NCBI GenBank assembly: GCA_045589175.1
Contig: JAZNFS010000033.1
Coordinates: 90,734 to 154,733 of the forward strand
Source: Christensenellaceae bacterium
Lineage (GTDB): Bacteria; Bacillota; Clostridia; Christensenellales; Borkfalkiaceae
Reading direction: 5' to 3'
DNA: 64,000 bases
Shown one piece after another: positions 6,801 to 62,532 of this stretch. Position numbers and translations under genes: made by a program. Below the pieces are notes generated by a model, which searched no databases, was not told where the DNA came from, and saw nothing but the letters and a program-made list of their open reading frames with translations. Each line of letters opens with the position of its first letter. The first letter of the stretch is position 1.

Positions 6801-6966
6801 CAATCCTCTAAAAACCCCTATGTGAGGACACCGTTCATAGCGTGGCTTTTCGTTTTTTAATATAATTTTTTTCTGTGCTTTTTGTTTATATCAATCAAAA
6901 AAGCCTATCGTTTGATAGTCTTTTTTCTTATTATTTAGTTAGTTAATCAACTTATAGGGGCACTTT

Positions 6967-9654
6967 TTAATTTTCGCCGTTTTCTTCGGTTGCTCTTTCT
7001 GTTACGCTTTCAACAGCAACGTCTTCAACAGCTACACCGTTTTCGGTTAAAACTTCTTCGCCCAAATCTTCTTTTTCTTCTTCAGCGTGAGGGACTACCG
7101 CAACGGTAACGACTCTGCCACCGTCAACCTTCATTACCTTAACGCCCTTAGTATCTCTACCGATTTTTGAAACGTCACAGGCAGGAGTTCTAATAACAAT
7201 ACCGTTATCGGCAATAAGCATAATATCTTGATCATCTTTAACGAGTTTTAAGCTTACAAGTCTGCCAGTTTTATCGTTAAATACGCCAGCCTTAATACCC
7301 TTACCTCCACGAGATTGTAAACGGTAATCTTCGATATCACTACGTTTACCAAAACCGTTTGCGCTTATAGTTAAAACGTCAAATTCTGGTTTAACAACAG
7401 TCATATCAACAAGCATATCGTCTTCGCTTATTAACATACAGCGAACGCCTTGAGTATCTCTACCCATAGCGCGAACGTCGTGTTCGCTAAATCTGATACA
7501 CTTACCTTCGTAAGAAGCGGCTAAAATTTCATCATCACCCGAAGAAACTTGAACTGAAATAAGTTCGTCGCCTTCGTTTAAGTTAATAGCAATCTTACCG
7601 TTCTTTCTAATGTTATCAAATTCGCTTACTGCCGTTTTCTTAATTAAACCGCGACGAGTTGCTAAAACGATATATTTCTTTCCATCAACGGCTACTTCGC
7701 TTTCACCGTTAACTTCTTTGCTTGTATTTTCTTCGCCTTCTGCTTCTACTTGAACTTCTTGATCTTCGCTTTCTACTGCTCCCGCATTTGTTTCGTTAAG
7801 AGGAATAATTGCAGAAACGTGTTCGCCTTCGGCAAGTGGCAATAGATTTACCATTGCTCTACCGCGTGCAGCCTTAAGCCCTTCTGGAATTTCATAGCCC
7901 ATAAGTCTATAAACTTTACCAAAGTTGGTAAACATTAATAAGCGGTCGTGCGTTGAAGAGATAAACATATCTTCAACAAAGTCTTCTTCTTTTGGCTTAT
8001 GACCGGTTACACCCCTGCCACCACGTTTTTGAGCGCGATATTCTTCCAAAGATAAACGCTTAATATATCCTAAGTGAGTAACGCTAATAACCACGTCTTC
8101 TTTCTTAACGAGGTCGGCAATGTCGATTTCAGAAAGGTCGTAAGAAAGTTCGGTTTTTCTTGGAGTTGGATATTTTTCTTTAAGTTCGATAAGTTCGTTT
8201 CTAACGATGGCAAGAACCCTTTCAGGTTTTTCTAAAATATCACGTAAATCAGCCATTAGTTCATCTAAAGCAGCGAGTTCGGCTTGTAATTTTTCAACTT
8301 CTAAAGAAGTTAAACGTTGTAAACGCATATCTAAAATAGCGTTTGCCTGCTTTTCAGAAAGTTCAAACGATGCAATTAAGTTTGCTTGCGCTTCTTGACG
8401 ATCGCGCGAGCGTTTAATTACTGCAATAACCTCATCAATAGAAGAAAGAGCAATAACTAAGCCTTTAACGATATGTTCTCGTTCTTCGGTTTTTGCAAGG
8501 TCGTATCTTGTTTTTCTTGTAACTACTTCAACTTGGTGCTTAACGTAAGCTTCAAGAATTTGTTTTAGGTTAAGAATTTTTGGTTCACCGTCAAGCAAAG
8601 CAAGCAAGGTAATACCGTTACTAACTTGAAGTTCGGTGTGCTTATAAAGCATATTTAATAAAACTTGTGGATTTGCATCCTTTTTAACGTCGATAACGAT
8701 TCTCATACCGTGACGATCTGATTCATCGTTAATATCTGCAATACCTTCAATTTTTTTATCTTTTACAAGCTCTACAATGTACTTAATAAGCTTTTCTTTA
8801 TTAACTTGGTAAGGAAGTTCGGTTACAACTATTCTGTGCCTTGTTCCGTTATTAAAGTCTTCAATTTCACATCTACTTCTTAAAATAACGCTACCACGAC
8901 CAGTGCGGTAAGCATTTTTTACGCCGGCTCTACCAAGTTGAATTGCCCCGGTTGGATAATCTGGTGCAGGAATATATTCCATTAATTCATCGATAGTTAT
9001 TTCAGGGTTTTCAATTAAAGCGATAGTGCCGTTTATAACTTCGGTTAAGTTATGAGGTGGAATATTAGTTGCCATACCAACGGCAATACCGTCCGACCCG
9101 TTAACTAAAAGGTTAGGGAATTTTGATGGTAATACGGTTGGTTGCATACGCGTATCATCGAAGTTAGGATAAAAATCAACCGTTTCTTTATCGATATCAC
9201 GAAGAAGTTCAACGGCAAGTTTACTCATTTTCGCTTCAGTATAACGGTATGCTGCCGGTGGATCACCGTCAACCGAACCAAAGTTTCCGTGCCCGTCAAC
9301 AAGTGGTAAGTTGGTTGAGAAATCTTGAGCGAGTCTTACGAGTGCGTCGTAAACCGAACTGTCGCCGTGTGGGTGATATTTACCAAGAACGTCACCAACG
9401 ATGGCAGCACATTTTTTATAACCCTTTTCAGGCGCTAAGCCCATTTCATTCATAGCGTAAAGTATTCTTCTATGAACCGGCTTTAACCCGTCGCGCACGT
9501 CGGGAATAGCACGCGAAACGTTAACCGCCATAGCGTACGCTATAAACGATTTTTTAAGTTCGTTATCAACTTCGATATTTATTATATTCGTTTGTGCAAG
9601 CGTTTGACGAAATTCTTCAGTCAATGCGCTATTCATTTCTTTTTTAGTTGCCAT
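6967..9654 (-). CDS. gyrA: DNA gyrase subunit A
   Basis: The active-site region [12 protein letters not shown] and the GyrA box are present. The C-terminal beta-pinwheel carries an acidic insertion and an acidic tail. Gene order is gyrB-gyrA. Confidence 0.95.
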
Positions 9655-19719: not shown

Positions 19720-19762
19720 AAAAGTGCCGATAATTAAGCTATATCGGCACTTTTTTGTTTTT
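19720..19762. terminator. Bidirectional intrinsic terminator (patatin gene / miaA)
   Basis: Hairpin AAAGTGCCGATAATTAAGCTATATCGGCACTTTTTTG. Confidence 0.55.
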
Positions 19763-23533: not shown

Positions 23534-24598
23534 TTAATTTAATTTATTACCGCAAGATGCGCAGAATTTATCGCCAGACGCTACTTCGTTTCCACATTCT
23601 GGGCAAAAGCGCTTAACGTCCATTTTAGCGCCACATTCTGGGCAGAACTTACTGCCTGCTGCAACCTCTTTTTTACATGACTTACAAATTACGGTTGCTT
23701 TTTTAGGCTCTTCTTTTTGTGGCTTACTTTCGCTACCCTTCATTGCATCGCTCATAATAGCGCCAACTTGCGCGCCTGCACCCATGCCAACACCAACGCC
23801 CATAAACGCTCCGCCAACACCTGGGTTTTTAGCCGCGCTTCTCATTGCTTCGGCAGCAGAAACCTTCATCATAGTGTCGGTAGCATCGCCTAAAATACCG
23901 TATTTAGAGCGTTCGTCTAAAGCCTTTTCAACTTCTTGTGGAACAGACATATTTTCGATTATAAGCGTTTGTAAACTTAAACCGATTTCTTTAAACATAC
24001 TTTGTATTTTAGCCTTAACTATGGTTTGAAATTCCATTGTGTTGCCGGCTAAATCAATAACTGAAATTTTACTTTCGCCGATAGCATCTGTAATTCCCGA
24101 AACGATCATACCTTTTAGGTACTCTTGAATTGCGCTAGTTTCAAAAGAAGAATTAGTGCCAAAAAGTTGACGCATAAAGGTTGGAGCATCGTCAACCTTA
24201 AAAGCGTAAGAACCAAAACCGCGTACGCGTATAACCCCAAATTCGGGATCACGCATCATAAATGGGTTTTGTGTTCCCCATTTCATATTAGTAAATAGTT
24301 TGGTGTTAACAAAATATACGTCTAAAGTAATAGGGGTTTCAAATTTATATTTCCAAGAAGCAAGTTTAGTAAGAACGGGTAAAATTTCGCTTTCTAAGTT
24401 GTATAAGCCTGGTGTAAAAACGTCGGCAATTTGACCTTTATGTACGAAAATTGCTACTTGTGATTCTCTAACGGTAAGCGAGCTTTTGTTGTTAACTTCT
24501 TTACCACTGTTTTTAAAAGGATATTTATATACCATTCTGTTGGTGGTATCGTCTGACCATTCTATATTAAGCCTAAATAAGTTATCAAAAAGTCCCAT
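23534..24598 (-). CDS. SPFH/Band-7 domain protein with a C-terminal double zinc ribbon
   Basis: Start at MGLFDNLF (ATG 24598, AAGGAG RBS). A Gly-rich linker follows the SPFH core. The C-terminus has CKSCKK..CPECG..CPECG..CASCG. Confidence 0.7.
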   Translation of the reverse strand: MGLFDNLFRLNIEWSDDTTNRMVYKYPFKNSGKEVNNKSSLTVRESQVAIFVHKGQIADVFTPGLYNLESEILPVLTKLASWKYKFETPITLDVYFVNTKLFTNMKWGTQNPFMMRDPEFGVIRVRGFGSYAFKVDDAPTFMRQLFGTNSSFETSAIQEYLKGMIVSGITDAIGESKISVIDLAGNTMEFQTIVKAKIQSMFKEIGLSLQTLIIENMSVPQEVEKALDERSKYGILGDATDTMMKVSAAEAMRSAAKNPGVGGAFMGVGVGMGAGAQVGAIMSDAMKGSESKPQKEEPKKATVICKSCKKEVAAGSKFCPECGAKMDVKRFCPECGNEVASGDKFCASCGNKLN

Positions 24599-24768
24599 AA
24601 CATACTCCTTTGTGTCAATAAAATCATAAAATGCGCACACGCACGCATTATGATTATATATTATATCATCACTTTTATAATTTTACAATCATTTTTTATA
24701 AGTTTTTTGCTTTTTATTTTTGTTTATAGTTTATAAACACTCGTTTTTTAGTTTTTTTAAACAACTGC

Positions 24769-25386
24769 CTATTCTTCATCATCGGAGTTGTCGATATCGT
24801 CATCAAACTCTTCTATATCATCATCGAGGTCATCTTCGCAATCATCATCCGCATAATCGATATCTTCTTTCGTTTCATCTTCATCAATAGGATCTTCTTC
24901 ATAGTCTTCTATATCGTCATCCTCATCAATCGAATCTTCTTCATCATCTGGAGAGTCAAACGATAAAACCACGTCGTTTTGCTTTGGTTTTCTAAATACG
25001 ATAAAGGTATCGTAAAGATATTCGGTTGCAAAGTTTATAATCATATTCATAACAACAACCACAGTATCATTCCAACCTATTTGCACTAAAGCGTCGCCCC
25101 ACCAAGTTGAAAGTGGTGTAAATACTAAATAGTAGCAAGCAACCAAGAACATTGCAAACGGAACGTTAACCGCGCTTTTAAAGGTAAATTTACGGTTGAA
25201 AGTAAAATTCCATAAAACCGAAAGCGCAAGCGAAATTACGTAAACCCACCAGTAATATTGTTCTGGAGTAAACCAAATACCGCAAAGTAGTGCCAAAAGC
25301 TCGTAAGAAACTATTTGAATTACACCTGCCGAAATTGAAAATGCAGTAAATTTTAAAATTTGAATAAATCTTTCCTTCTTTGTCAC
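24769..25386 (-). CDS. GtrA-family membrane protein with a poly-acidic C-terminal tail
   Basis: Four-TM GtrA-like core. The last ~65 aa are nearly all D/E. Apparent GTG start at 25386 with an AAGGA RBS. Confidence 0.6.
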   Translation of the reverse strand: MTKKERFIQILKFTAFSISAGVIQIVSYELLALLCGIWFTPEQYYWWVYVISLALSVLWNFTFNRKFTFKSAVNVPFAMFLVACYYLVFTPLSTWWGDALVQIGWNDTVVVVMNMIINFATEYLYDTFIVFRKPKQNDVVLSFDSPDDEEDSIDEDDDIEDYEEDPIDEDETKEDIDYADDDCEDDLDDDIEEFDDDIDNSDDEE

Positions 25387-25426
25387 TTTTATTTCCTTTT
25401 AACAATAAAAATTGAAGATTTTTTAT

Positions 25427-25452
25427 TAAAAACCACGCTATAACGCGATTAA
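25427..25452 (-). promoter_or_regulatory. Copy A of the conserved upstream motif (TAAAAACCACGCTATAACGCGATTAA), 5' of the GtrA-like gene
   Basis: 26/26-nt identity with copies at 26122 and 28612. It lies ~40 nt upstream of the start codon. Confidence 0.55.
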
Positions 25453-25489
25453 AGGCGCTTTCATATCCTTTTAAAAGGATTTAAAAGTT

Positions 25490-26092
25490 TTATTTTAGTT
25501 TAAGCCACATAGCAGGACGCACTGCAACGTTATTACTATATGCAATATCACCACGAGTATCTATTATACCTTCACCGTCAACAAGCGCTTCACGACGTTC
25601 ACCCACGCCGGGCGAACGAAGCCACCAAAAACACGCTTTAGTAGCCGTATTTTGGTAAGCGTTATTTTTCATTGCGTACATAGTTGGCTCGCTTTGTTTG
25701 GATTTATCCGTAGGTAAATATTCTTTTGCTTCCTTTACGCTAAAAACAAATAATTTATCCTCAGTTGTAGTTATAAAACCTAATAACGACTTTTCTTCTT
25801 CAGTTTTAGTTGTTTCAATCATTTCTTTTTCTTCTTGAGTAAAGGCGTTATTATAAAATTCACCGTTTAGCCAAGCCCTTAAAGTGCATTTTTTCCAACT
25901 TGTTTTTTCATATTTTTCGTGGTAAGGCTTACAATCAATGCCGTATTTGCTAATAACAAGCACCATATTATCATCTTTTTTAACCAACAACCACTCGATA
26001 GGTTCTTTGATTTTAGGGTTAGACTTAGTATAATTACCAAACTCAATACTATCTCCTCTTTTCATTTTTGCAACTTCTTCTTTTTTTAACAT
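25490..26092 (-). CDS. DUF6273-like single-domain protein
   Basis: Motifs IEWLLV, SKYGIDCKPY, CTLRAWLNGEFYNNAF, WWLRSPG and VRPAMWL. ATG 26092 follows a GGGAGAA RBS. Confidence 0.55.
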   Translation of the reverse strand: MLKKEEVAKMKRGDSIEFGNYTKSNPKIKEPIEWLLVKKDDNMVLVISKYGIDCKPYHEKYEKTSWKKCTLRAWLNGEFYNNAFTQEEKEMIETTKTEEEKSLLGFITTTEDKLFVFSVKEAKEYLPTDKSKQSEPTMYAMKNNAYQNTATKACFWWLRSPGVGERREALVDGEGIIDTRGDIAYSNNVAVRPAMWLKLK

Positions 26093-26121
26093 TTTCACGT
26101 TCTCCCGAATTTGTTTTCATC

Positions 26122-26149
26122 TAAAACCACGCTATAACGCGATTAACAG
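26122..26149 (-). promoter_or_regulatory. Copy B of the conserved upstream motif (TAAAACCACGCTATAACGCGATTAACAG)
   Basis: Lies ~30 nt upstream of the 25490-26092 gene. Confidence 0.55.
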
Positions 26150-26195
26150 CGGTTTTGCGTTTCTTGTACTTGTCGTTTGTTTTTTATTAAGTATT

Positions 26196-28580
26196 TTAAT
26201 CTAACGTAACCCACATTGCTGGGCGCACACAACGATTCGTAAGATTCACATTTTTACCACTATCCTTAACTTTGCCATCCGAATTTACATAACCAACGAA
26301 ATTTTGATTACTACCTGGTGTTCTAATCCACCACATACAATTTTCACCATCCACATATGCACCATTTTCCCTTGCAAAGGCGGTAGGTTTACATGCCCTT
26401 TCTTCATCAACTTCAAAATGTTCTTTTGCCCCTTTGAGGCTTAATAAAAACATTTTATCGTTAGTTGAATTCCCTGGGTTTCTATTATATAAAGGGTTTT
26501 TGTCCGCGCTTACATGCATTAATTGAATTTTTAACTGTTCTTCACTGTTAAATGCACTGTTTAAAAACTCATTATTTAGCCATTTTCTTAAAGTACAACG
26601 CTCCCATGTTATATTAGTATCTTGAGAATTGTATGGCTTGCAGTCAAGAGCATATTTACTAATAAGTAACACCTTATCTTCTTGTTTTTCAAGAAGTAAC
26701 CACTCGATATCTTCTTTTATGCTAGCATCACTTTGTGGGTATTTACCAAACTTTATATAGCCACCAACTTTTGCATCGTTAAAAGGATTTAAAACCGCCT
26801 TTAAGTTTGTTTTTTCGGCTTCTTGCTTATCTTGTTTAGTCACAGCATCAAGTTCAATCCATATTACCGGACGCACAGCCATGTCAGTATTATTAACAAT
26901 GCTACCACCATTATGTATATGCCCATCACTATGGACATAACTTGCATTACTTTGAAAATGACCAGGAGTACAAAGCCACCAATTAACATTGTTTCTAAAA
27001 TCAACACTTAAGCCGTTTTGTTTTGCATAAGCAGTAGGCTTACATATTCTTAATGTATCGCTATTAAAATGCTTATTTACATCAGATATCGTTAATAAAT
27101 TTACTTTATCTTCTGTTGGTTTTCCAGCCTTTGTTCCATAAACAGGATTGCATCCTGCAGATATTAAAACTGTTGATATTTTAGTTTTCTCATCTACTGA
27201 AAAGGCATTATTAAAAAATTCATTATTTAGCCATTTTCTTAAACTGCAATTTGCCCAAGTGATATCTTCAAATTTATCATGATATTGCTTGCAATCAAGA
27301 GCATATTTACTAATCAGTAAAGCCCCGCTACCTTGTTTATCAAGAACTAACCACTCGATATCTTCTTTTGTGCTGGCATCACTTTGTGGGTATTTACCAA
27401 ACTTTATATAGTCACCCACTTTTACATTATTTAAAGCATGTTGCTTATTTTTGCTAACGCTTGGCGCTCTTCGTGACTTTTCACTTATTAATGAATCATT
27501 TTGTTCAAGCTCTTTTTTAAAACGCTTTTGCTCTTCAATTTGTTTTTGAGAATCAAAATCTTCTTCAAAACAATCGTCTGCGCACATATATTTCATAATG
27601 CGCGCTTTTACGCCATCAATATCGTAGCAATATTCAAGCCCTGCAAAAATTTCGTTAACGATACCGTCTGCCATACTCTTTGTATCGTCGAGCCTTAACT
27701 GAATACGCGGTTTTTTATACTTACAATTTATTTTATCATAAGAAAGATTAGGGAATTTATATCGCAAATTTTCTAAATCGCTCTTTTTTAAATATGGCAA
27801 TTCGTGCTTTATTGCGTCGCACTTAAAATTGCGCGAATTTTTTGAAGAGATAAATAAAAAGATTTTACTGTTATCAATAGCCTTTTCAAGCGCTTGTTGA
27901 TAGTTATTAACCGCGCCAACACCGTGCTGTAGGTTACGCATTGCAACAAAGCAAGTTAACCCTTCTTCTTCAAGGGCGGTTACAATTTGTTGAACTTTAC
28001 CCATGTCGGCGCTTGAATACGCCACGAATACGTCACGCGGTAAATTAAGCTCGTAAACGCCTTCTTCAACAAGTTCGGCTTGAGTAGCAAAAGCGGTTGT
28101 TAGGCGATTATAGGTTTGTAAATCACTACCCTTATACGCCCTTTCAATTAGGTTATTAACGCATAGCAAATATTCACTTTTTAGCGATTTAATTAAAAAG
28201 TTAACGATAGGCTCAATAACTTCGTAATGCTCTTTTACGTTTATGTTATCAATAAAATCAATTACCGCTTGTTCGTATTGACCACAAACAACTTCGTAAA
28301 AGTTTGCTAAAAAATCTTCGGGATAAATATTTTTAATATTTAAACATATAGAAACTATTTTTTCGCTATCAATAAATTTTGCAGTTGCTTCTTGCCATAA
28401 ATGACGGCGAAGCGAATTTAACTGCTCTTGCTTTTGTTTATCTAAAAAACTATCAAGAAGCTCTTGTTGTTTTTTTGCGGTAACTTGCGCATAGGTAGAG
28501 CCACAGTTTTCACACTTGCAAATTTCTTCACTTATAGGCTGTAGCGTTCCACCACAGTTTTTACAAAATAACTCTTGCAT
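26196..28580 (-). CDS. Multi-domain protein: N-terminal zinc ribbon, helical domain, TIR-like domain and three DUF6273-like repeats
   Basis: N-terminal CKNCGG..CKCENCGS. The TIR-like block reads DVFVAYSSADMGKVQQIVTALEEEGLTCFVA...KIFLFISSKNS. Three repeats each carry the EWLVL / SKYALDCK / CSLRKWLNNEF / WWL(C/R)TPG / VRP(V/A)(I/M)W motifs. Confidence 0.6.
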   Translation of the reverse strand: MQELFCKNCGGTLQPISEEICKCENCGSTYAQVTAKKQQELLDSFLDKQKQEQLNSLRRHLWQEATAKFIDSEKIVSICLNIKNIYPEDFLANFYEVVCGQYEQAVIDFIDNINVKEHYEVIEPIVNFLIKSLKSEYLLCVNNLIERAYKGSDLQTYNRLTTAFATQAELVEEGVYELNLPRDVFVAYSSADMGKVQQIVTALEEEGLTCFVAMRNLQHGVGAVNNYQQALEKAIDNSKIFLFISSKNSRNFKCDAIKHELPYLKKSDLENLRYKFPNLSYDKINCKYKKPRIQLRLDDTKSMADGIVNEIFAGLEYCYDIDGVKARIMKYMCADDCFEEDFDSQKQIEEQKRFKKELEQNDSLISEKSRRAPSVSKNKQHALNNVKVGDYIKFGKYPQSDASTKEDIEWLVLDKQGSGALLISKYALDCKQYHDKFEDITWANCSLRKWLNNEFFNNAFSVDEKTKISTVLISAGCNPVYGTKAGKPTEDKVNLLTISDVNKHFNSDTLRICKPTAYAKQNGLSVDFRNNVNWWLCTPGHFQSNASYVHSDGHIHNGGSIVNNTDMAVRPVIWIELDAVTKQDKQEAEKTNLKAVLNPFNDAKVGGYIKFGKYPQSDASIKEDIEWLLLEKQEDKVLLISKYALDCKPYNSQDTNITWERCTLRKWLNNEFLNSAFNSEEQLKIQLMHVSADKNPLYNRNPGNSTNDKMFLLSLKGAKEHFEVDEERACKPTAFARENGAYVDGENCMWWIRTPGSNQNFVGYVNSDGKVKDSGKNVNLTNRCVRPAMWVTLD

Positions 28581-28611
28581 AATTTATCTCCTTCGTTAAA
28601 ATATTTTCACT

Positions 28612-28640
28612 AAAAACCACGCTATAACGCGATTAACAGC
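28612..28640 (-). promoter_or_regulatory. Copy C of the conserved upstream motif (TAAAAACCACGCTATAACGCGATTAACAG)
   Basis: Lies ~30 nt upstream of the 794-aa gene start. Confidence 0.55.
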
Positions 28641-28700
28641 CCTTTGAATTATTTTTTTTATCTAAATTTATAAAACCTGCTATTAAGTTTTAACGTTGTA

Positions 28701-29483
28701 TCACTTTACACTTATTTGTAGAACTGGAACAATTCCTTTCATCGACGTTTGAAATGAATAGAAAATAGAGCCGTCTGTATTTCCAATCCATGCATAGTTA
28801 ATAGACGCGTGATAAGGCGAACGAAGCCACCAAGTTCCATTACCATATCTATCCAAGGTGGTAAGTATACCAACACCAGTTGCGCGAGCATAGTCGCTGG
28901 CTATCTTTTCTCTTACTGAACTTCTTCCTTCATTTTGATTATCAAGATTACATGCTTCTTGTTTACTTAATAAATAAATTTTATCTTTAGTATTTTTGCA
29001 TGCATTTTTATTTGAAGAATGCCCAGTACTTGCTTTAGTGTTGTTTACGGTTGTAACAGCGATTAACTTTTTTTGAATTTCATTAAATGCAAGATTATAA
29101 AACTCAGCGTTAAGCCAAGCCCTAATTTCACTATCCATATAAGTTTGTGGGATAGTGGAAAAAACTCGACCATCAATTATGTTTGTGCATAAAACCGATA
29201 AAGTTTCACTATCTTTTGAAAGAACTATCCACTTTATGGGCTCAACTTTAAAATAATATTCATTACCTTTAGTTATGATAGTTCCGTTTGAAAACTTATA
29301 ATTCGTATTATATGGGGTTGCTACTATTTTTGAATAACATTCGCCGTCGCTACCCAAGTAATAACCATTTTCATTTACAGTATCGGATACAACAACATCA
29401 TCTTCTTTAACTGATTGCGGATAAAAACCAAAATCTACTATCTCGCCTATTTTTACATTTTTTAGGATATCGTTCATTACCAT
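28701..29483 (-). CDS. DUF6273-like protein, translationally coupled to rsmA
   Basis: Motifs IKWIVL, IRAWLNAEFYNLAF and WWLRSPY. The start lies 3 nt after the rsmA stop. Confidence 0.55.
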   Translation of the reverse strand: MVMNDILKNVKIGEIVDFGFYPQSVKEDDVVVSDTVNENGYYLGSDGECYSKIVATPYNTNYKFSNGTIITKGNEYYFKVEPIKWIVLSKDSETLSVLCTNIIDGRVFSTIPQTYMDSEIRAWLNAEFYNLAFNEIQKKLIAVTTVNNTKASTGHSSNKNACKNTKDKIYLLSKQEACNLDNQNEGRSSVREKIASDYARATGVGILTTLDRYGNGTWWLRSPYHASINYAWIGNTDGSIFYSFQTSMKGIVPVLQISVK

Positions 29484-29486
29484 TTT

Positions 29487-30326
29487 CTATCCCTTATAAC
29501 CTTTTTGCTTAATTACGTTAGATAGCTTTACAAAATCGGCTTCGCAAAGGGTTTCGCCACGCGCAAGCAAATCAATTTCACATTCTAAAAGTAAATTTTC
29601 GATTGAAACTTTATCAATCTTAAGCCATTCACGCAAATTATTAGCAAGCGTTTTTCTTCTTGATAAAAAAGCGTTTCTAACCGTTTCGCGATATAAAATT
29701 CTATCAACACCCTCGAACTTGTTTCGATTAAAGGTTATTTTCACCACCGCACTATCAACGTTTGGCGCAGGATAAAACATTTTACGCGAAACACTTAAAA
29801 TGCGCTCACTATCTGCAACAACGTTAATACCTGCGGTAATTGCACCGTATTCACTAGTTCCGGCTTTAGCGCAAATTCTATCCGCCACCTCTTCTTGCAC
29901 CATAATAACTATGCCCTTACAAAGTTTAGATTCTTCAATAAACTTCATAATGATAGGAGTTGTTATATAGTAAGGTAGATTTGCAACGAGCATATAAGGT
30001 TCGCCAATGCGGTTTTCGGTTTCGTGCGTTTTTTCACGCATAATATCCTTAAAAGTTATGTCGCAATTTTCAATCCCTGCAAGATTTTCACCCAAAACAG
30101 GTGCTAACGTTTTATCAATTTCGTAGCCGTAAACGTATTTTGCTCTTTCGCATAAAACCTTGGTTAAAGTTCCTGCACCGCACCCTATTTCAAGCACGGG
30201 GGTAGTTTTATCAACCCCACTTTTTATAACGATACTTTCAAGCAAATTGCTGTCGCTTAAAAAGTTTTGCCCGTATTTTTTACTAAACTTAAAATCGTGT
30301 TTTTTAAGTAATTCGCCAAGTTTCAT
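29487..30326 (-). CDS. rsmA: 16S rRNA (adenine1518/1519-N6)-dimethyltransferase
   Basis: The N-terminus KKYGQNFL and the SAM-binding motif are present. Confidence 0.9.
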   Translation of the reverse strand: MKLGELLKKHDFKFSKKYGQNFLSDSNLLESIVIKSGVDKTTPVLEIGCGAGTLTKVLCERAKYVYGYEIDKTLAPVLGENLAGIENCDITFKDIMREKTHETENRIGEPYMLVANLPYYITTPIIMKFIEESKLCKGIVIMVQEEVADRICAKAGTSEYGAITAGINVVADSERILSVSRKMFYPAPNVDSAVVKITFNRNKFEGVDRILYRETVRNAFLSRRKTLANNLREWLKIDKVSIENLLLECEIDLLARGETLCEADFVKLSNVIKQKGYKG

Positions 30327-30339
30327 TTATAATTCCTTT

Positions 30340-31113
30340 TTAATTTCCAAGTTGTTCTTCCCCAAAAAATTTAACCGCGTTTTCGGCAACTTGTTTTATA
30401 AACTTTTGTAAACTAATTTCGTAAATATCAGCCATAGCCTGATAGACTATCGCCACCCTTTTAGGCTCGTTTACCTGCCCACGGTATGGTACGGGTGACA
30501 TATACGGACAGTCAGTTTCGCACATAACACGCTCGATTGGTATATTTTTTATAATATCTTCCTTTTTAGCGTTTTTAAAGGTGATTGCCCCGCCAAAGGC
30601 GAAATATCCGCCAAGCTTTAGGTATTCTTTCGCACTTTCAAGACTTTCGGAATAGCAATGCATCAAAAAGCCCTTTTTTAGCTTTGGCGCGTAAATCGAA
30701 AGAATATCAAGCATATCTTTTGTTGCTTCGCGCGAGTGAATAACAACCGGTAAATCGAGCTCGCAAGCTAACTTTAATTGCTCTATAAAGGCATTTTGTT
30801 GTTCTTCTTTATTATCTTTACCGTAATGATAATCAAGCCCGATTTCTCCAATAGCAAGACACTTTTCGTGTTTGATTATTGGCAAAAACTTTTGTATAAG
30901 TTCGCTGTTTAAAAACTTACAATCAGATGGGTGAACGCCAACGGTAAAAAACACCTTTTCGTTATTTTCGGCAATTTCTTTACCTAAAAAAGAGGTTTCT
31001 TCATTACAACCAACGGTTATTATTTTATTAACGCCCTCATTTTTAGCGTTTTGTATAATTTCGCTGGGGTTTTGGTATATTTTATCGGTTAAATGCGCGT
31101 GAGTATCTATCAT
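30340..31113 (-). CDS. tatD: TatD family metal-dependent hydrolase
   Basis: MIDTHAHL start. Follows metG as in Bacillus. Confidence 0.85.
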   Translation of the reverse strand: MIDTHAHLTDKIYQNPSEIIQNAKNEGVNKIITVGCNEETSFLGKEIAENNEKVFFTVGVHPSDCKFLNSELIQKFLPIIKHEKCLAIGEIGLDYHYGKDNKEEQQNAFIEQLKLACELDLPVVIHSREATKDMLDILSIYAPKLKKGFLMHCYSESLESAKEYLKLGGYFAFGGAITFKNAKKEDIIKNIPIERVMCETDCPYMSPVPYRGQVNEPKRVAIVYQAMADIYEISLQKFIKQVAENAVKFFGEEQLGN

Positions 31114-33050
31114 TAGCGAACAATGCTTCCTTCAGGCATTTGAGCGTTAGGTTCAACTAAAGTTACAACGCCATCCTTTTCGGCACATAAAACCATACCT
31201 TCGCTTTTAATTCCGCGTAGGTTTGCAGGCTTTAAATTGCTTACTAAAATAACCTTTTTACCAACAACTTCTTCAGGCGCGTAATATTTTGCAATACCGC
31301 TAGCAACAGTTCTAGTTTCATTACCAAGTGAAAGAGTGAGTTTTAAAAGCTTATCGCTCTTTTCAACTCTTTCGCAAGCAGTTACCAAAGCAACCTTTAA
31401 ACTGATTTTTGCAAAATCTTCAATGCCTATTTCAGGTAGTTTTGGCTCTTCTTTTATAGGTTCTTCTTTAACTTGATATTTTTTAGCAATTTCTTCAGCT
31501 TTTTTTAAAACTTCGCTTACGTCAAGGCGAGCAAAAATAACCTTTGGATCTTCGGTTACCTTAGTTCCGTCTTTATATAAACCGAACTTATCAAGGCTAT
31601 CAAAGGCGCGAATTTCCGTATTCAATTCGTTTAAAACTTCTTCACTAGTTGCAGGCATAAATGGGTGCAATAAGCTTGCGCAAATAACTATAGTTTCAGT
31701 TAAGTTGTACATAACCTCTTTTAAACGTGGCATACTCGCTTCTTCTTTTGCTAGTACCCAAGGCGCAGTTTCGTCGATATACTTATTTGCTCTCCTTAAA
31801 AGCGTGAAAACACAAGAAAGAGCGTCGGCAATCTTACATTCATCCATAAGCGCGCTTACCTTTGAATAGGTTGAAGTGGCTAAAGCTTTTAGTTCTTGGT
31901 CAATTTCTTCTTCTACTCCACTTCTTTCAACAACGCCATCAAAATATTTGTTAGTCATTGAAATAGTACGCTTAACAAGGTTTCCGTAAACGTTTGCAAG
32001 TTCGGCGTTTATTTTTTCAGTCATCATTCCCCAAGAAACTAAGCCGTCATTATCAAAAGGCATACCGCTTAAAACGTAATATCTAACCGCATCTACACCA
32101 AAAACACTAGCTAAATCATCTGCGTAAAGTACGTTACCCTTTGATTTGGACATTTTTCCACCTTCTTGAAGTAGCCATGGATGACCAAATACTTGTTTAG
32201 GTAAAGGTTCGCCCATTGCCATTAAGAAAATTGGCCAGTAAATCGTATGGAATCTTATAATATCCTTACCGATAACGTGAACGTCGGCAGGCCAATATTT
32301 TTTATATAATTCGTTGTGGTTACCCTCCAAATCAAAGCCTAAGCCTGTAATATAATTAGTAAGAGCGTCCAGCCATACGTAAACTACGTGTTTATCGTCA
32401 AAATCAACCGGGATACCCCATTTAAACGAAGTTCTTGAAACACATAGGTCTTGAAGCCCAGGTAATAAGAAATTGTTCATCATTTCATTCTTTCTTGAAA
32501 CGGGAACTATAAAATCGGGGTTTGCATTGATATGATCGATTAGTTTTTGAGCATACTTGCTCATTTTAAAGAAGTACGCTTCTTCGTTTGCCTTTTTAAC
32601 TTCTCTACCGCAATCGGGGCATTTACCGTCAACTAATTGGCTTTCAGTCCAAAAAGATTCGCAAGGGGTGCAATACCAACCCTCGTAAGAACTTTTATAA
32701 ATATCGCCTTGTTCGTAGAATTTTTTAAATATTTTTTGAACTTGCTTTTCGTGGTGTTCGTCGGTAGTTCTTATAAACTTATCGTAAGATACGTTCATAA
32801 TATCCCAAATACCTTTTATAGTGGTTGAAACTTCGTCAACGTATTGCTTGGGAGTTTTGCCAGCAAGCTTTGCTTTTTCTTCTATTTTTTGACCGTGCTC
32901 GTCAGTTCCCGTTTGAAAGAAAACGTCGTACCCTTGCATCCTTTTAAATCTAGCCATACCGTCAGCTAAAATAGCTTCGTAAGTGTTGCCGATATGTGGT
33001 TTTGATGAAGTGTAAGCTATCGCCGTTGTAATGTAGTATTTTTCTTTCAT
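31113..33050 (-). CDS. metG: Methionine--tRNA ligase with a C-terminal tRNA-binding domain
   Basis: HIGN and KMSKS motifs. 645 aa. Confidence 0.95.
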   Translation of the reverse strand: MKEKYYITTAIAYTSSKPHIGNTYEAILADGMARFKRMQGYDVFFQTGTDEHGQKIEEKAKLAGKTPKQYVDEVSTTIKGIWDIMNVSYDKFIRTTDEHHEKQVQKIFKKFYEQGDIYKSSYEGWYCTPCESFWTESQLVDGKCPDCGREVKKANEEAYFFKMSKYAQKLIDHINANPDFIVPVSRKNEMMNNFLLPGLQDLCVSRTSFKWGIPVDFDDKHVVYVWLDALTNYITGLGFDLEGNHNELYKKYWPADVHVIGKDIIRFHTIYWPIFLMAMGEPLPKQVFGHPWLLQEGGKMSKSKGNVLYADDLASVFGVDAVRYYVLSGMPFDNDGLVSWGMMTEKINAELANVYGNLVKRTISMTNKYFDGVVERSGVEEEIDQELKALATSTYSKVSALMDECKIADALSCVFTLLRRANKYIDETAPWVLAKEEASMPRLKEVMYNLTETIVICASLLHPFMPATSEEVLNELNTEIRAFDSLDKFGLYKDGTKVTEDPKVIFARLDVSEVLKKAEEIAKKYQVKEEPIKEEPKLPEIGIEDFAKISLKVALVTACERVEKSDKLLKLTLSLGNETRTVASGIAKYYAPEEVVGKKVILVSNLKPANLRGIKSEGMVLCAEKDGVVTLVEPNAQMPEGSIVR

Positions 33051-33163
33051 AAAAATCTCCTTGAGTTAGAAAACTTGCATTTTATCGTTTATTGTATTGA
33101 TTATACAATAAAACCAAAAAAATGTAAAACATAAAAAGCGAATTATGAACATATTATTTTGTT

Positions 33164-34296: not shown

Positions 34297-34649
34297 CGCT
34301 TTTCTTTTTATTATTTTCAACACAAAAGTGCCGTTAATTGCCTTATACGGGCACTTTTTAAAAAATTCTTATATCCTCGCTAACAATTTTTACTTTAATG
34401 AAAAATTAGATATCTTACTACTTTCGAACTTACCCATCAAAAATTATTGTTAGAAAAAAGAGCTTTTTTTATAACCAAAAATCGCGCAAAAAACCTTGAT
34501 AATCAACTTATTGGGACTTTTTTATTACTTTTATAGTCATTTTTCGATAATTTGTTGTTTTTTTGTTGACTTTTGAATAATATAGTTGTAAAATTAATTT
34601 ATAATTAATTGTGATATAATTATTCTTTCATATAAGGGAGGGGTTAGAA

Positions 34650-35732
34650 ATGGCAGAAAAAGAGCTTATAAAATACGTTGGTGACAACAATACTTTAGTA
34701 CATAAATTCACTTGTCCCGATTTAAAACCAACTGCAGAACTTATGGTTCACGACTCGCAAGAAGCGGTTTTTTATAAAAACGGCCAAGCGTTAGACGTTT
34801 TTCCAGGCGGTATTCATTCTTTAAAACCTGAAAACGTACCATTTTTAAAACGTGTTTTCGGCGCTATTTTTGGCGGACCAAACACCTTCCCTTGCGATAT
34901 ATTCTTTGTAAATAAAGTTTCTGTGCTTGATATAATTTGGGGAACTGATTCTCCTATAGCGCTTGAAGATCCAAAATACCCTATGCTTATAAACGTTCGC
35001 GCAAACGGCCAAACGGGTTTAAAAATTAAAGACTCTAGCAAATTCGTTGCAAACGTAGTTGGTCAACTTCCAGAAATTAGCGTTGAAGCCGTTCGCCGTG
35101 CAATTAAAGGTATGATGATGAGTTCTATCAAAGAGTGTATTGCCATAGCAATTGCCGAACATAAAGTAAGCATTTTAGAAATTTCAACTAAACTTAGCGA
35201 ACTTTCTAACGCTATTTTAGCAAAATTAAACGCAAGAGTTGCCGATTTAGGTATTGAACTTAACCACTTTGCAATCAACTCAATCTCTGCAAGCGAAAGC
35301 GATCTTGAACAACTTCGCAAAACTAAAGCTGAAATGCTTAAGGGCTTTAGTGAAGCAGATATTGAAGCATATAAAATTTCAAGAATCAGTGAAGCGCGCG
35401 CCAAAGCACGTGAAACTGAAGGCTACACTTATGCCGACGAACGCAAATTTGACGTTTTAGAAGAAGCAGCAAAAAATGCTAACGCCCCTGCTTTTGCAGG
35501 CAACGCAGTTAACCAAATGGGCAACTCAACTTTAAACGCTCCTGCATCTAAACCAGTTCAACAAGGCACTGGTAAGGTTTGCCCCGAATGTGGTGCGCCA
35601 GTTGCAGAAGGTGCTAAGTTCTGTATGAACTGCGGTAAACAACAACCTGTTGCTATGTTCTGCCCTGAATGTGGTAACAAATGCGTTCCAGGAAGTAAAT
35701 TCTGCATGAACTGCGGAACTAAGCTCGGCTAA
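34650..35732 (+). CDS. SPFH/Band-7 domain protein with a C-terminal double zinc ribbon, paralog of 23534-24598
   Basis: SPFH core. The C-terminus has CPECGAP..CMNCGK..CPECGNK..CMNCGT. An upstream promoter reads TTGACT...TGTAAAAT. Confidence 0.7.
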   Translation: MAEKELIKYVGDNNTLVHKFTCPDLKPTAELMVHDSQEAVFYKNGQALDVFPGGIHSLKPENVPFLKRVFGAIFGGPNTFPCDIFFVNKVSVLDIIWGTDSPIALEDPKYPMLINVRANGQTGLKIKDSSKFVANVVGQLPEISVEAVRRAIKGMMMSSIKECIAIAIAEHKVSILEISTKLSELSNAILAKLNARVADLGIELNHFAINSISASESDLEQLRKTKAEMLKGFSEADIEAYKISRISEARAKARETEGYTYADERKFDVLEEAAKNANAPAFAGNAVNQMGNSTLNAPASKPVQQGTGKVCPECGAPVAEGAKFCMNCGKQQPVAMFCPECGNKCVPGSKFCMNCGTKLG

Positions 35733-41079: not shown

Positions 41080-42015
41080 ATGTTTGATAATATACTTGAG
41101 CAAATTAAAAATCACGATACAATAATCATTCACCGCCACACCAAGCCCGACGGCGACGCACTCGGCTCGCAGATAGGCTTAAAGCACCTTATTAAACACA
41201 ATTTTCCCAACAAAAAAGTGTTTGTCGTTGGCGATATGACCGAGCGTTATTCCTTTATTAACGACTGTGTAATGGATGAAATTGACGATAGCGTATATAG
41301 CGATGCTCTCGCCTTTGTTTTAGACCTTTCTGCTCCACATTTGGTATCCGACGAAAGATATAAATTAGCAAAAACAACCGTTCGTATCGACCATCACCTT
41401 TTTATTGAAAAGTTTTGCGATATAGAAGTTACGGACAGTAGTTTTGAAAGTTGCGCAGGGCTTATTGCGTACTTTGCCAAGAGCTGTAATCTTGGTTTAA
41501 ACGCGCAAAGCGCAAGCGCGCTATATACGGGAATGGTAACCGATTCTGGCCGTTTTAGATATGATTCAACCACTTCACGAACCTTTGAAGTTGCATCTTT
41601 TTTATTAACCGTTCCTTTTTCGTTAACCGATATATACGTAAACCTTTACGCCGACGATTTTGAGTTTATAAAACTTCGCGCAAGCTTTATTTTAAAAATT
41701 AATTTTACAGATAAAAAGGTTGCATATATCTATACTACTAAAGAAGAAATGGCTAAGCTTAACAAAGATACTTTTACTATTTCACGCGGAATGGTTAATA
41801 CTATGTCCGATTTAAAGGGCGTTGACGTTTGGGTTAACTTTACCGAAACTGAAGATGCTGTTCTTTGCGAAATTCGCTCGTCAAAGTATAACATTAACCC
41901 CATTGCTGTTAAGTACGGCGGTGGCGGACACGCAAAAGCAAGCGGAGCAACCCTACCCAACAAACAAACCGCTATGGCGCTACTTAACGACTTAAACGAC
42001 TTAATTGTAGAATAA
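41080..42015 (+). CDS. nrnA: DHH-family bifunctional oligoribonuclease / pAp phosphatase
   Basis: DHH motifs HRHTKPDGDALGS and IDHH, plus the DHHA1 segment GGGHAKASGA. Confidence 0.8.
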   Translation: MFDNILEQIKNHDTIIIHRHTKPDGDALGSQIGLKHLIKHNFPNKKVFVVGDMTERYSFINDCVMDEIDDSVYSDALAFVLDLSAPHLVSDERYKLAKTTVRIDHHLFIEKFCDIEVTDSSFESCAGLIAYFAKSCNLGLNAQSASALYTGMVTDSGRFRYDSTTSRTFEVASFLLTVPFSLTDIYVNLYADDFEFIKLRASFILKINFTDKKVAYIYTTKEEMAKLNKDTFTISRGMVNTMSDLKGVDVWVNFTETEDAVLCEIRSSKYNINPIAVKYGGGGHAKASGATLPNKQTAMALLNDLNDLIVE

Positions 42016-42055
42016 ATAGCATGAGATGACTCGACTTGCGCGTAATCACAACGCA

Positions 42056-42103
42056 TTCTCCTTCCACCGCTAAAGCGGTCCCCCTTCCTCCCGGAGGACG
42101 GCT
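42056..42103 (+). repeat. GC-rich repeat, type B copy 1 (TTCTCCTTCCACCGCTAAAGCGGTCCCCCTTCCTCCCGGAGGACGGCT)
   Basis: Carries two short hairpins (ACCGC-TAAA-GCGGT and TCCTC-CCG-GAGGA). Near-identical copies lie at 42616 and 44721. Confidence 0.6.
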
Positions 42104-42161
42104 AATTTATATAAGCAAAATAAAAAAAAATATAGTTAATTAAAAAGGTTTTATATAAATA

Positions 42162-42539
42162 ATGTCGCTTGATTATAATAAAAAAAATATAACACTTGCA
42201 AAAAATTTACGCAAGAATGCAACGCCTCAAGAGAATCATTTATGGTATGACTTTTTATCAAAATATGATATTAGGTTTCAGCGACAAAAAGCAATAGATA
42301 ATTTTATTGCAGACTTTTATTGTCATAAAGCAAAACTTGTTATAGAAATTGACGGTTCGCAACATTATACCGAAAAGGGGAAAAGTCAAGACTTTTTTAG
42401 AACCGAGATTTTAGAGGAATATAATTTACAAGTTATACGATTTACAAACTTCGATATTGATTCCAACTTTCAGGGCGTATGCGAGTATATCGACAAAGTA
42501 GTAAAGCAAAATATTATAAACTATAAAAAGCGAATTTAA
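42162..42539 (+). CDS. DUF559 (Vsr-like endonuclease fold) protein
   Basis: Carries the ATPQENHLW..FQRQKAI.NFIADFYC..AKLVIEIDGSQH..VIRF pattern typical of the DUF559 family. Confidence 0.65.
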   Translation: MSLDYNKKNITLAKNLRKNATPQENHLWYDFLSKYDIRFQRQKAIDNFIADFYCHKAKLVIEIDGSQHYTEKGKSQDFFRTEILEEYNLQVIRFTNFDIDSNFQGVCEYIDKVVKQNIINYKKRI

Positions 42540-42542: not shown

Positions 42543-42593
42543 AAGGCTCCTTCGGGGAGGGAGCTGGCGCGTATGAGACTGAGGGAGAATGCC
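42543..42593 (+). repeat. GC-rich repeat, type A copy 1 (AAGGCTCCTTCGGGGAGGGAGCTGGCG...GAGGGAGAATGCC)
   Basis: GCUCC-UUCGGGGAG-GGAGC hairpin containing a UUCG loop. Second copy at 42707. Confidence 0.55.
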
Positions 42594-42615
42594 CTTTACG
42601 TGCTTTTAATTTTTT

Positions 42616-42667
42616 CGCTTTCTCCTTCCACCGCTGAAGCGGTCCCCCTTCCTCCCGGAGGACGGCT
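42616..42667 (+). repeat. GC-rich repeat, type B copy 2
   Basis: 50/52-nt identity with copies 1 and 3. Confidence 0.6.
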
Positions 42668-42706
42668 TGGAAAATTTTGCTTAGACTTACATTATTAGTA
42701 TAAAAT

Positions 42707-42757
42707 AGGCTCCTTCGGGGAGGGAGCTGGCGTGCAAACGCCTGAGGGAGAGTGCCA
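42707..42757 (+). repeat. GC-rich repeat, type A copy 2
   Basis: Near-identical to 42543-42593 over the first 27 nt and the last 13 nt. Confidence 0.55.
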
Positions 42758-61582: not shown

Positions 61583-61920
61583 GTGAAACATTTTTATAAA
61601 ATTCAAGTTAATGAATATATAGGCCTGTTTTTTGTGAAATATTTTTTAATACAAGAAGTTAAAAACTTGCTTGCAAGGGTTTTAAACTTCGCAGGATTAT
61701 ACACTTGAAGTTTAAAAACATGAGTTTTTAAAGCAAAACCCACAGTTTTTGCAAAGATTTTGCCAGTGGCAAAAGATTTAACTTCTTATCGTTTTTAATA
61801 TTTACTTAAAAAAATAAAACATTTATAGTAATTTTTATTTTTTTCTTTTTTATAATTTTTTCGTATTTTACTATTTTTTAAGTTTTTTGATAAAAATTAA
61901 GATATAAAAATACATAAAAG

Positions 61921-62532
61921 TTAGCCTATAAGTCGATTATTGGCACTTTCAAGCATACTTTTTATATCTTCGTTTGAGAGTGTGTCTTTTTGCTTTTTAT
62001 TACTATATCTCTCTTTTATAAACACTTCAATCCCTTTTGCAACGTTCGTTGCCATTTTGTATATACTAGAAAGGCGGATATCTGTTAAAAAACCTCTTTT
62101 AAAGTCAGCTTTTTCTCCAACAACCCCTATAATCGACAAGTCCCCCACCATTGGCAAATCTTTGTCCACTCCAAGCCCTGGTTTTAAGCCCGTTTTTTGA
62201 ACCTTTACCCTTCCAACGTCCCATTTTTTACCCACAGCGGCATCGACAACCACTACAGTACTATCAGGATGAGCTTTTTTTATATATTGTGCTATAAACG
62301 GTACTTCTTTTGCCGTTATCGGATGAGTTAAGTTGCCGTAAGTAAATATATTCCCCACGTTAAGGTTGATTAAAGTTGCACTTAGCGGAGCTAAAGAGTC
62401 ACCTATATTACTGTCTGTACCGATGAAAACGAACACAAGGTTTTCACTTTTATAATCAACGTATTTTTCAAGCGCTTTTGCAATTGACAAATATAAATAT
62501 TTATCTTCAATATAAAAATTTAACTCTTTCAT
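61921..62532 (-). CDS. yyaC: Spore protease YyaC-like protein
   Basis: IGTDSNIGDSLAPL motif. An alternative TTG start lies at 62550. Confidence 0.55.
   Translation of the reverse strand: MKELNFYIEDKYLYLSIAKALEKYVDYKSENLVFVFIGTDSNIGDSLAPLSATLINLNVGNIFTYGNLTHPITAKEVPFIAQYIKKAHPDSTVVVVDAAVGKKWDVGRVKVQKTGLKPGLGVDKDLPMVGDLSIIGVVGEKADFKRGFLTDIRLSSIYKMATNVAKGIEVFIKERYSNKKQKDTLSNEDIKSMLESANNRLIG

Follow-up and report, generated by a model that had tools for sequence, protein, structure and literature searches.

A stretch of 64,000 nucleotides from a Christensenellaceae bacterium (contig JAZNFS010000033.1, positions 90,734 to 154,733; hereafter the window) carries, downstream of the housekeeping gene ksgA, three copies of one short motif, each in the gap between two consecutive genes. 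The motif is most likely the local sub-variant of a lineage-specific family of dispersed intergenic repeats, about 30-40 nt long, and comparison with related genomes revealed turnover of gene cassettes between strains, with the joints at the element. The interpretation that we favour, at a probability of roughly 55%, is that the element is a dispersed repeat resembling the repetitive extragenic palindromic (REP) and SPRITE sequences and having the anatomy of a Rho-independent terminator, weak at this locus, where it would attenuate read-through and supply the cassette joints.

Three copies of one motif in consecutive intergenic regions

When the three intergenic regions were aligned in the direction of the genes (minus strand), they proved to share a core of 24 invariant bases, TTAATCGCGTTATAGCGTGGTTTT (sense strand). 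The identity among the copies is sharply bounded, at 24-27 nt, and the sequence flanking the core is unrelated among them on either side. A search with the 20-mer CCACGCTATAACGCGATTAA, allowing up to three mismatches, found exactly three sites in the window (+ strand 25433-25452, 26127-26146 and 28617-28636), the chance expectation from dinucleotide shuffles being 0. An earlier note on this DNA had described an identical motif at 25427, 26122 and 28612, lying 25-45 nt upstream of the starts of a GtrA-like gene, a gene for a DUF6273 protein (gene B) and a gene for a TIR protein, and had held it to be better conserved than the genes around it. All three sites were recovered, and the conservation of the motif indeed far exceeds that of its flanks and of the neighbouring genes. 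Counted from those coordinates, the motif is 40 nt from the GTG of the GtrA-like gene (25386), 31 nt from the ATG of the TIR gene (28580) and 29 nt from the ATG of gene B at 26092 (23 nt from a possible GTG start at 26098; we prefer the ATG because of its Shine-Dalgarno spacing and because a 200-aa protein is called in a relative). These distances of 29-40 nt agree with the range given in the note, and each contains a Shine-Dalgarno sequence. In sense orientation, the stop codon of the preceding gene lies 36-60 nt upstream of every copy, and all three preceding genes (gene A, the TIR-2xDUF6273 gene and gene B) end in a DUF6273 domain.

On the sense RNA the core is predicted to form an 8-bp stem with a UAUA loop, AAUCGCGU-UAUA-GCGUGGUU, and U's after it; the three G-U pairs among the eight of the stem leave the complementary strand unable to fold. 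The direct repeat ACGC-N4-ACGC seen by the earlier note is present, and on the sense strand, where it reads GCGU-UAUA-GCGU, it also forms a G-U-containing hairpin. In the copy after gene A (E1 in Table 1) the predicted sense-strand hairpin occupies 28615-28634 and is followed by UUU, and in the copy after the TIR gene (E2) the outer arms AAAAC(C)GC and GCGUGGUUUU can additionally pair. The isolated core hairpin has a predicted energy of -6.7 kcal/mol. All three copies lie downstream of stop codons, fold on the gene strand only and have a U-tract, GGTTTT(T)A, after the stem.

A dispersed intergenic repeat family

The exact 20-mer was also found in three other Clostridia metagenome-assembled genomes (MAGs). 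The sheep-rectum MAG RGIG6167 (contig L001), from a close relative, carries it at the same locus, and the two others carry it beside unrelated genes; a run of about 30 nt is identical in different species while adjoining unrelated genes. In a Christensenellaceae MAG (L003) the motif is located between tandem paralogues encoding SHOCT-domain proteins and is followed by a separate promoter, TTGCGT-16-TATAAT with TG. In the Clostridiales MAG SIG378 (L002) the 3′ end of a convergent open reading frame (ORF) of 658 aa comes 4 nt after the motif. In the other contigs no homologue of the cassette proteins is present, and the motif is therefore not tied to DUF6273 or TIR genes; a specific link between the motif and DUF6273 genes was discarded, as there is none outside the window's species. 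The SIG378 contig also contains, at 1-3400 and 7060-7330, up to 14 copies of another family of repeats (GAGATTCTATCGCTTCGCTCCAGAATGAC...), densely arrayed around the 658-aa ORF and a gene for a GIY-YIG endonuclease; this 2.9-kb segment is bracketed by a 73-nt repeat in two direct copies, which are 93% identical and end in the motif.

A slightly degenerate pattern, TAATCGNNYTATAGCGNGGTTTT, matched 89 metagenome stretches, mostly from the gut, in about 52 distinct contexts, and a relaxed core, TAATYNNNYTATA, gave 66 more sites in the same 612 kb. Related MAG and gut-metagenome contigs, 733 kb in total, yielded about 100 distinct family instances; by a rough estimate 3-8 of 100 are chance matches, most likely among the sites inside ORFs. 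The degenerate pattern had 0 matches in 2.9 million viral contigs. In rough outline, members consist of an A-run, a GC-rich arm (often GTGCCG), the core G(A/T)TAATCGNNYTATAG, then a further arm rich in GC (CGGCAC, GGCGAC, GCGNGG and the like) and a T-run, the core consensus being G(A/T)TAATCG(A/C/G)(C/G)(T/C)TATAG. They are spaced about every 3-6 kb in both orientations; the window holds about 7 intergenic members at E<0.05, with further members, beside the three copies described above, at 6937, 19720, 34323, 34499 and 61913.

To place these sites relative to genes we used a crude ORF-based classification, by which 61 sites fell into intergenic types: 38 tandem (22 sense, 16 antisense), 14 convergent and 9 divergent, where the background counts of such regions are 245, 63 and 49, respectively. 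Another 14 sites were inside called ORFs, leaving 81% of the classified sites outside them. The family is clearly intergenic, yet not restricted to 3′ ends. For the exact sub-type found in the window, the next downstream gene is convergent in 6 of 14 independent contexts, ending 4-149 nt past the T-run (5 of them within 41 nt), which makes a role as promoter or 5′ untranslated region (5′UTR) impossible in these six.

Profile matches with significant scores also occur inside genes, in mgtE (4717-4747) and miaA (20385-22). The match in mgtE is a coding coincidence, because GAT AAT CGC CTT ATA GGC encodes the CBS-domain motif D-N-R-L-I-G, and matches of this kind call for caution in motif censuses. 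A family-like core, GCGCGATAATCGCGCTATAGG, on another contig (L101, 7925-7986) has a perfect TTGACA-17-TATAAT promoter on one side and, on the other, the Shine-Dalgarno sequence that belongs to a gene for a Big_2 surface protein; the core lacks a T-run and forms a 6-bp hairpin, GCGCGA-UAA-UCGCGC, so the family core can also sit in a genuine 5′UTR.

Folding potential is a property of the family as well as of the three copies. Over 100 distinct instances, folding of the element region is better than in controls with shuffling confined to the flanks (mean z -1.24, p=5e-10, with 27% below -2). Of the two strands, the one with the T-run gives the better fold (p=0.001), which is what a contribution of G-U pairs would predict, and 82% of the instances have 5 or more T among the 8 nt that follow the 3′ arm. 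The sub-type found here, with the core CGCG, is represented by 15 distinct sequences (about 14 contexts), and all of them keep the 8-bp hairpin 100% paired; the only variation, at three of its pairs, is an exchange of G-C for G-U or the reverse. The position opposite G that was the sole one left unconstrained in the search pattern is C or T in 14 of 14 contexts of this sub-type, compared with 26 of 38 in the other sub-type (p=0.023). The pairings themselves differ between copies, involving either the outer arms or TAATCG and the 3′ arm. In Rfam 15 no match reached its gathering threshold (the best sub-threshold one had 25 bits against a cut-off of 50), and limited literature searches found no description of the family.

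Cassettes differ between genomes, with joints at the element

We compared the region downstream of ksgA in three genome types. Writing E for a copy of the element, the order in the window is ksgA-A / E / TIR-DUF6273 / E / B / E / GtrA. In genomes of the same species (L001, L097 and L098; ksgA 95% identical) it is ksgA-A / E / B / E / TIR-LRR (847 aa) / E / GtrA, LRR standing for leucine-rich repeats, and in a sister species (L095, L096 and L099; ksgA 84%) it is ksgA / E′ / TIR-LRR (567 or 615 aa) / E′ / GtrA. The TIR-DUF6273 gene is thus absent from the same position in the closest relative. The content or order of cassettes differs among the three types, and the joints are at the motif, most of them placeable within it. 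Because the same sequence of 24-80 nt flanks every cassette, we regard the element as the cassette joint.

The structure of the joints was followed on both sides. The 3′ side of the element, with the 5′UTR and Shine-Dalgarno sequence, is specific to the downstream gene at every joint, and for gene A the 5′ side, the 3′UTR, stays with the upstream gene. In the relative, the joint between A and B is an exact composite of two of the window's copies, with E1 supplying its left half and E2 its right half. Copies are near-identical within a genome and different between genomes: those in the window read GTTAATCGCGTTATAGCGTGG, the relative has one CGTG copy and one GCGTAAC copy, and the sister species has AATAATCGTGTTATAGCYCTAC. 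In the sister species the direct repeat spans about 80 nt, from the 5′ arm of the element through the 5′UTR to the ATG. As a caveat, two other loci in the relative's genome that encode a TIR protein with a variable C-terminus (TIR-X) lack intact flanking elements. For gene conversion, we compared an orthologous family copy between strains, where the entire intergenic region is too diverged for comparison. In the simplest history, an ancestral arrangement ending in E-GtrA received TIR-X cassettes, each with one element, at different copies in each lineage, whereby the element was duplicated.

What is notable at this locus is that the repeat bounds strain-variable cassettes for TIR proteins whose C-terminal binding domains are interchangeable. 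Across many Clostridia proteins, identity to the first ~330 aa of the TIR protein (Cys-rich region, linker and TIR domain) is 60-80%, and the C-termini of these proteins are entirely different (DUF6273, LRR_5/LRR_8, TM2, L7/L12_C, TPR or protein kinase); the TIR proteins are a modular family with swappable binding domains. The Cys-rich region is a putative zinc ribbon, from sequence only. PADLOC gave no meaningful match for the cassette proteins. Downstream of another TIR-LRR gene in the same MAG as contig L001 (L094, 12571-13096) we noticed a tandem GC-rich repeat of ~160 nt (…CGTCATCCTGAGTGAAGCGTTAGCGCAATCGAAGGATC…).

Transcription of the array and proposed action of the element

Every local gene is on the minus strand, in the order metG, tatD, ksgA, A, TIR-DUF6273, B, GtrA-like and then an SPFH gene, with the copies E1, E2 and E3 preceding the TIR-DUF6273, B and GtrA-like genes, respectively. 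A scan for sigma-70 promoters (-35/-10 hexamers spaced by 16-18 nt) found zero sites overlapping the motif, and the only strong intergenic sites were one ahead of metG and one ahead of the SPFH gene (Table 1).

Table 1. Positions in the window of the element copies, other family members, the surrounding genes and predicted promoters (core positions in + strand coordinates).
Feature	Position	Strand	Description
Element copy E1	28610..28646	-	core 28613-28636; between gene A (DUF6273-A) and the TIR-2xDUF6273 gene
Element copy E2	26123..26157	-	core 26123-26146; between the TIR-2xDUF6273 gene and gene B (DUF6273-B)
Element copy E3	25425..25461	-	core 25429-25452; between gene B and the GtrA-like gene
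metG-tatD-ksgA	29487..33050	-	conserved housekeeping genes, proximal anchor of the variable locus; metG 31113-33050, ksgA 29487-30326
Gene A	28701..29483	-	cassette gene; 260-aa DUF6273 (C-type-lectin-like) protein; starts 3 nt after ksgA
TIR-2xDUF6273 gene	26196..28580	-	cassette gene; 794 aa; N-terminal Cys-rich region, TIR domain, two DUF6273 domains
Gene B (DUF6273-B)	25490..26092	-	cassette gene; 200-aa DUF6273 protein
GtrA-like gene	24769..25386	-	membrane protein with acidic tail; conserved distal anchor in all three genome types
Sigma-70-like promoter	33100..33128	-	TTTACA-17-TATAAT, 11/12; upstream of metG; best match; likely promoter of a transcript running through the cassette array
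Promoter-like site	24660..24688	-	TTGTAA-17-TATAAT with TG; upstream of the SPFH gene; next strong intergenic site; would start the next transcription unit
Family member AAAAGTGCCGATAATTAAGCTATATCGGCACTTTTTT	19720..19757	+	convergent intergenic region; perfect stem, about -16.5 kcal/mol; bidirectional terminator type
Family member AAAAGTGCCGTTAATTGCCTTATACGGGCACTTTTT	34323..34360	+	downstream of a Gate-domain gene; weaker second copy at 34499-34526
Family member GAAAGTGCCAATAATCGACTTATAGGCTAACTTTT	61913..61950	-	convergent region between gltX and a DUF1256 gene
Family member GTTAATCAACTTATAGGGGCACTTTTT	6937..6969	+	abuts the gyrA stop codon, antisense; without matching 5′ arm

In the mechanism that we propose, a transcription unit driven from upstream of metG would run through the cassette array, and each copy of the element in the sense RNA would fold into a weak hairpin followed by U's. 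Being weak and lying inside this unit, the copies would act as leaky intercistronic terminators or as stabilisers of 3′ ends, and so could grade the expression of the TIR, B and GtrA-like genes behind them, as REP elements do in E. coli operons. Insertion, deletion and reordering of cassettes would proceed by Campbell-type or unequal recombination between copies.

A number of observations weigh against this interpretation. The hairpins of the three copies are weak, from -4.7 to -9.3 kcal/mol, compared with -16 to -23 kcal/mol for other terminators in the window, and a consensus terminator scan of the window did not list the three sites (a separate scan for a hairpin plus T-run did pick them up). 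For the whole family no fixed-register covariation was found and the complementarity of the outer arms is only slightly above that of a cross-pair control, for which reasons one conserved fold for the entire family was rejected. The best-conserved part is the AT-rich core, at the level of primary sequence, which a plain terminator does not explain. Family sites use the types of intergenic region roughly as these occur in the background, divergent regions included (9 of 61), with 14 sites in ORFs. As to the joints, an identity of 24 nt is short for RecA-dependent recombination, and the 3′UTR of gene B differs between two strains, so that not every breakpoint is in the element.

Comparison with known repeats

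Several known elements resemble this one in part. REP sequences and their composite forms, bacterial interspersed mosaic elements (BIMEs), of enterobacteria and pseudomonads are likewise short imperfect palindromes in many intergenic copies, within operons and in convergent gaps, at positions that vary between strains, for which roles as partial terminators, stabilisers of mRNA 3′ ends and substrates for rearrangement have been shown or inferred (bioRxiv 10.64898/2026.03.23.713779; PMC3337134). Inside an E. coli operon, for example, REP325 both partially terminates transcription and stabilises mRNA, and strains differ in where REPs are located (bioRxiv 10.64898/2026.03.23.713779). REP sequences, however, are GC-rich with conserved stems, often form inverted doublets (REPINs) and are linked to REP-associated tyrosine transposases (RAYTs), whereas the element described here conserves an AT-rich core, varies in its GC arms, includes a T-run as an integral part, has no doublets and no RAYT that we could see, and belongs to an uncultured Clostridia host; it is not demonstrably a REP sequence in the strict sense.

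SPRITE, a repeat of Streptococcus pneumoniae that resembles a Rho-independent terminator (PMC3184786), is similar in being a dispersed Firmicute repeat near gene ends with a predicted terminator-like hairpin and U-tract; it differs in length (~105 nt, versus ~30-40 nt here), has no sequence relationship to our element and is not known to bound gene cassettes. With Rho-independent terminators in general the element shares a hairpin followed by a T-run, in sense orientation downstream of a stop codon, and canonical members at convergent sites look bidirectional. Such terminators, in contrast, do not normally share a 14-nt core across species, and the copies downstream of ksgA are far weaker than the window's others.

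Alternative explanations

The architecture of the array, in which same-orientation, apparently promoterless ORFs are each followed by the same imperfect palindrome, is also what would be expected of an att-like recombination site in an integron-like or Xer/tyrosine-recombinase cassette system, with circular cassettes of one ORF and one element and a recombinase encoded elsewhere. We consider this unlikely, although several observations fit it: a TIR-X gene is found at a different copy of the element in each of three lineages, flanked by direct repeats of the element; the A-B joint in the relative is exactly what would remain had the TIR cassette been cleanly deleted between two copies; and a bounded identity of 24-27 nt has the size of a recombinase core site and is short for homologous recombination. 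The core also contains ATAA-N5-TTAT, which resembles the inner arms of Xer sites. When it was compared by eye with the 11-6-11 layout of Xer/dif (conserved XerD arm TTATGTTAAAT-like), the inner ATAA and TTAT were similar, but the outer arms and the 5-nt spacer were not.

The likeness extends to integron attC sites (for example, the Vibrio cholerae repeats) and to clusters of attC sites lacking integron-integrases (CALINs), in which a near-identical imperfect palindrome follows each promoterless-looking, unrelated ORF of the same orientation, and cassette content and order vary by strain with joints in the repeat. The attC consensus consists of R″-L″...L′-R′ boxes with a GTTRRRY core over 57-141 nt. 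The element, in contrast, has neither this layout nor a GTTRRRY box (it reads GTTAATC or GATAATC, which does not fit), is far shorter, at 27-40 nt, and is dispersed beyond any array; attC was accordingly rejected on architecture. No integrase (including an adjacent intI), recombinase or transposase was found in the 64-kb window or in the 10-kb flanks of relatives. Furthermore, the genome would be scrambled if all the scattered family members were active, the repeat of about 80 nt up to the ATG in the sister species looks like the product of homologous, Campbell-type recombination, and the two TIR-X loci noted above have no intact flanking elements. The more specific idea of an unrecognised, integrase-distant cassette system, in which TIR genes with swappable C-lectin/DUF6273 or LRR termini are captured, excised and reordered at hairpins downstream of ksgA, strikes us as slightly more doubtful. 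Were it true, position in the array would set the level of expression, as in integrons, with an unrelated site and enzyme.

That the copies are purely selfish, a REP-like element without selected function here that is spread by a trans-acting HUH/Y1 (RAYT-like) or other transposase, with the three copies as recent insertions or conversions, is improbable. Its many intergenic copies in both orientations, indifferent to the type of intergenic region, the conserved primary sequence between decaying arms, and the identical run of ~30 nt beside unrelated genes in different species would all be accounted for. However, the window has no RAYT or IS200-like gene (no Y1_Tnp among ORFs of at least 100 aa), RAYT genes being single-copy and the sample 64 kb, and no inverted doublets, its copies being single or direct. 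In the 733 kb of related contigs a tblastn search gave only one fragmentary IS200-like match, at a distance of 4.7 kb from an element. Selection at the level of RNA is suggested by the T-run, which is nearly universal, and by the G-U asymmetry in favour of the sense strand. Finally, the copies downstream of ksgA share a 3′ arm that is missing from other copies in the same species, which argues for local duplication rather than independent insertion.

The earlier note had proposed that the motif is a shared promoter, operator or 5′ leader that co-regulates the TIR, DUF6273-B and GtrA-like genes, of which an attenuator with a sequence-specific antiterminator would be a variant. The short and fixed distance to the next start (29-40 nt), the lack of any other evident promoter for these three genes, and a conserved primary-sequence core resembling a protein-binding site all speak for it, as do the TIR paralogues at other loci, where a hairpin and T-run like those of the element persist ~32 nt ahead of the ATG along with a homologous 5′UTR, and the sister species, where the repeat includes the whole 5′UTR. 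We nevertheless rate this proposal as decidedly improbable. There is no -35/-10 match at the motif, though the genome has canonical promoters elsewhere; the identical motif in the Christensenellaceae MAG (L003) precedes a canonical promoter of its own; the element points at the 3′ end of a convergently transcribed gene in 6 of 14 contexts of the sub-type, and in 14 of the 61 classifiable family sites; the family occurs in both orientations beside unrelated neighbours; and an operator would need neither the T-run nor the hairpin. What stands of the proposal is a real cis element in intercistronic RNA; its promoter or operator part is unsupported, for want of a sigma-70 pair and in view of the convergent contexts. 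A diluted form of the 5′UTR option may hold, with the hairpin as an attenuator in the leader ahead of each downstream cistron. So may an attenuator that is read by a sequence-specific factor, at which both the conserved primary sequence and the element-like hairpin upstream of a TIR paralogue hint. The motif census on related contigs likewise came out close to the simple repeat that the note had set against its own proposal, in that it revealed a dispersed family in all intergenic types.

Other candidate identities were rejected. Besides a sigma-70 promoter, of which the scan shows nothing over the motif, these include a promoter for a phage-type RNA polymerase: the core TAATCGAC(C/T)TATAG resembles the T7 promoter TAATACGACTCACTATAG minus 4 nt, and the candidate was dismissed on convergent gene ends, both orientations and 0 matches in viral contigs. 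A sigma-28 -10 box (GCCGATAA) is seen in a subset of 5′ arms only, with no TAAA at the correct spacing. A Haemophilus-type uptake sequence (AAAGTGCCG, resembling AAGTGCGGT) was dropped, the family being intergenic and the mgtE look-alike a coding coincidence, and no fit was apparent by eye to cre, CIRCE or Fur/Zur-type boxes.

The possibility that the motif is the target-recognition hairpin of a diversity-generating retroelement (DGR) is very remote and can be regarded as effectively refuted. All three copies do follow genes ending in DUF6273; DGR targets have a conserved hairpin just downstream of the variable region, as in the Bordetella phage BPP-1 system, and in DUF6273 proteins this region is at the C-terminus. 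DUF6273 is a C-type-lectin-like DGR target domain, and proteins with it are DGR targets in gut phages (PMC10743442; bioRxiv 10.1101/2024.10.15.618418). However, no reverse transcriptase was found in the 64-kb window or in the flanks of relatives, and no template/variable repeat pair in the window; the 3′ ends of the three genes are only ~50% identical at the nucleotide level, differences between strains are not concentrated at C-termini, and the family follows many genes without DUF6273.

Implications

If the element is indeed a terminator-like dispersed repeat, the motif is a marker of small intergenic repeats in an uncultured and poorly studied gut lineage rather than evidence of a regulon. 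Repeats of this kind would tune the expression of operons while leaving promoters untouched, and would create hot spots of gene gain and loss, which here concern TIR proteins fused to variable binding domains beside housekeeping genes. They can also mislead the inference of regulons from motifs. The three-way comparison provides a concrete and testable case of cassette turnover at a repeat of 24-80 nt, which would be of wider interest if a dedicated recombinase is involved.

Other features of the window

The protein encoded by the GtrA-like gene has an extremely acidic, D/E-rich C-terminal tail of ~60 residues, and its gene starts with GTG here and with ATG in relatives. Two paralogous SPFH/Band_7_1 genes with C-terminal double zinc ribbons, on opposite strands at 23534-24640 and 34650-35732, bracket the region from metG to the GtrA-like gene. 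Directly downstream of gyrA is a Fic/DOC plus Bro-N gene (5527-6381), followed by an intergenic region of 585 nt with several strong hairpins. GC-rich repeats (for example, CTCCTTCCACCGCTAAAGCGGTCCCCCTTCCTCCCGGAGGACGGCT) are found at 42050-42108, 42614-42672 and 44719-44777, and also at 42544-42597 and 42707-42760, in a window with a GC content of 35.5%. They flank a small DUF559 (Vsr-like endonuclease) gene (42162-42539), itself located between paralogous DHH/DHHA1 genes (41080-42015 and 42846-43829), and the DUF559 gene together with these repeats looks like an inserted small mobile unit.

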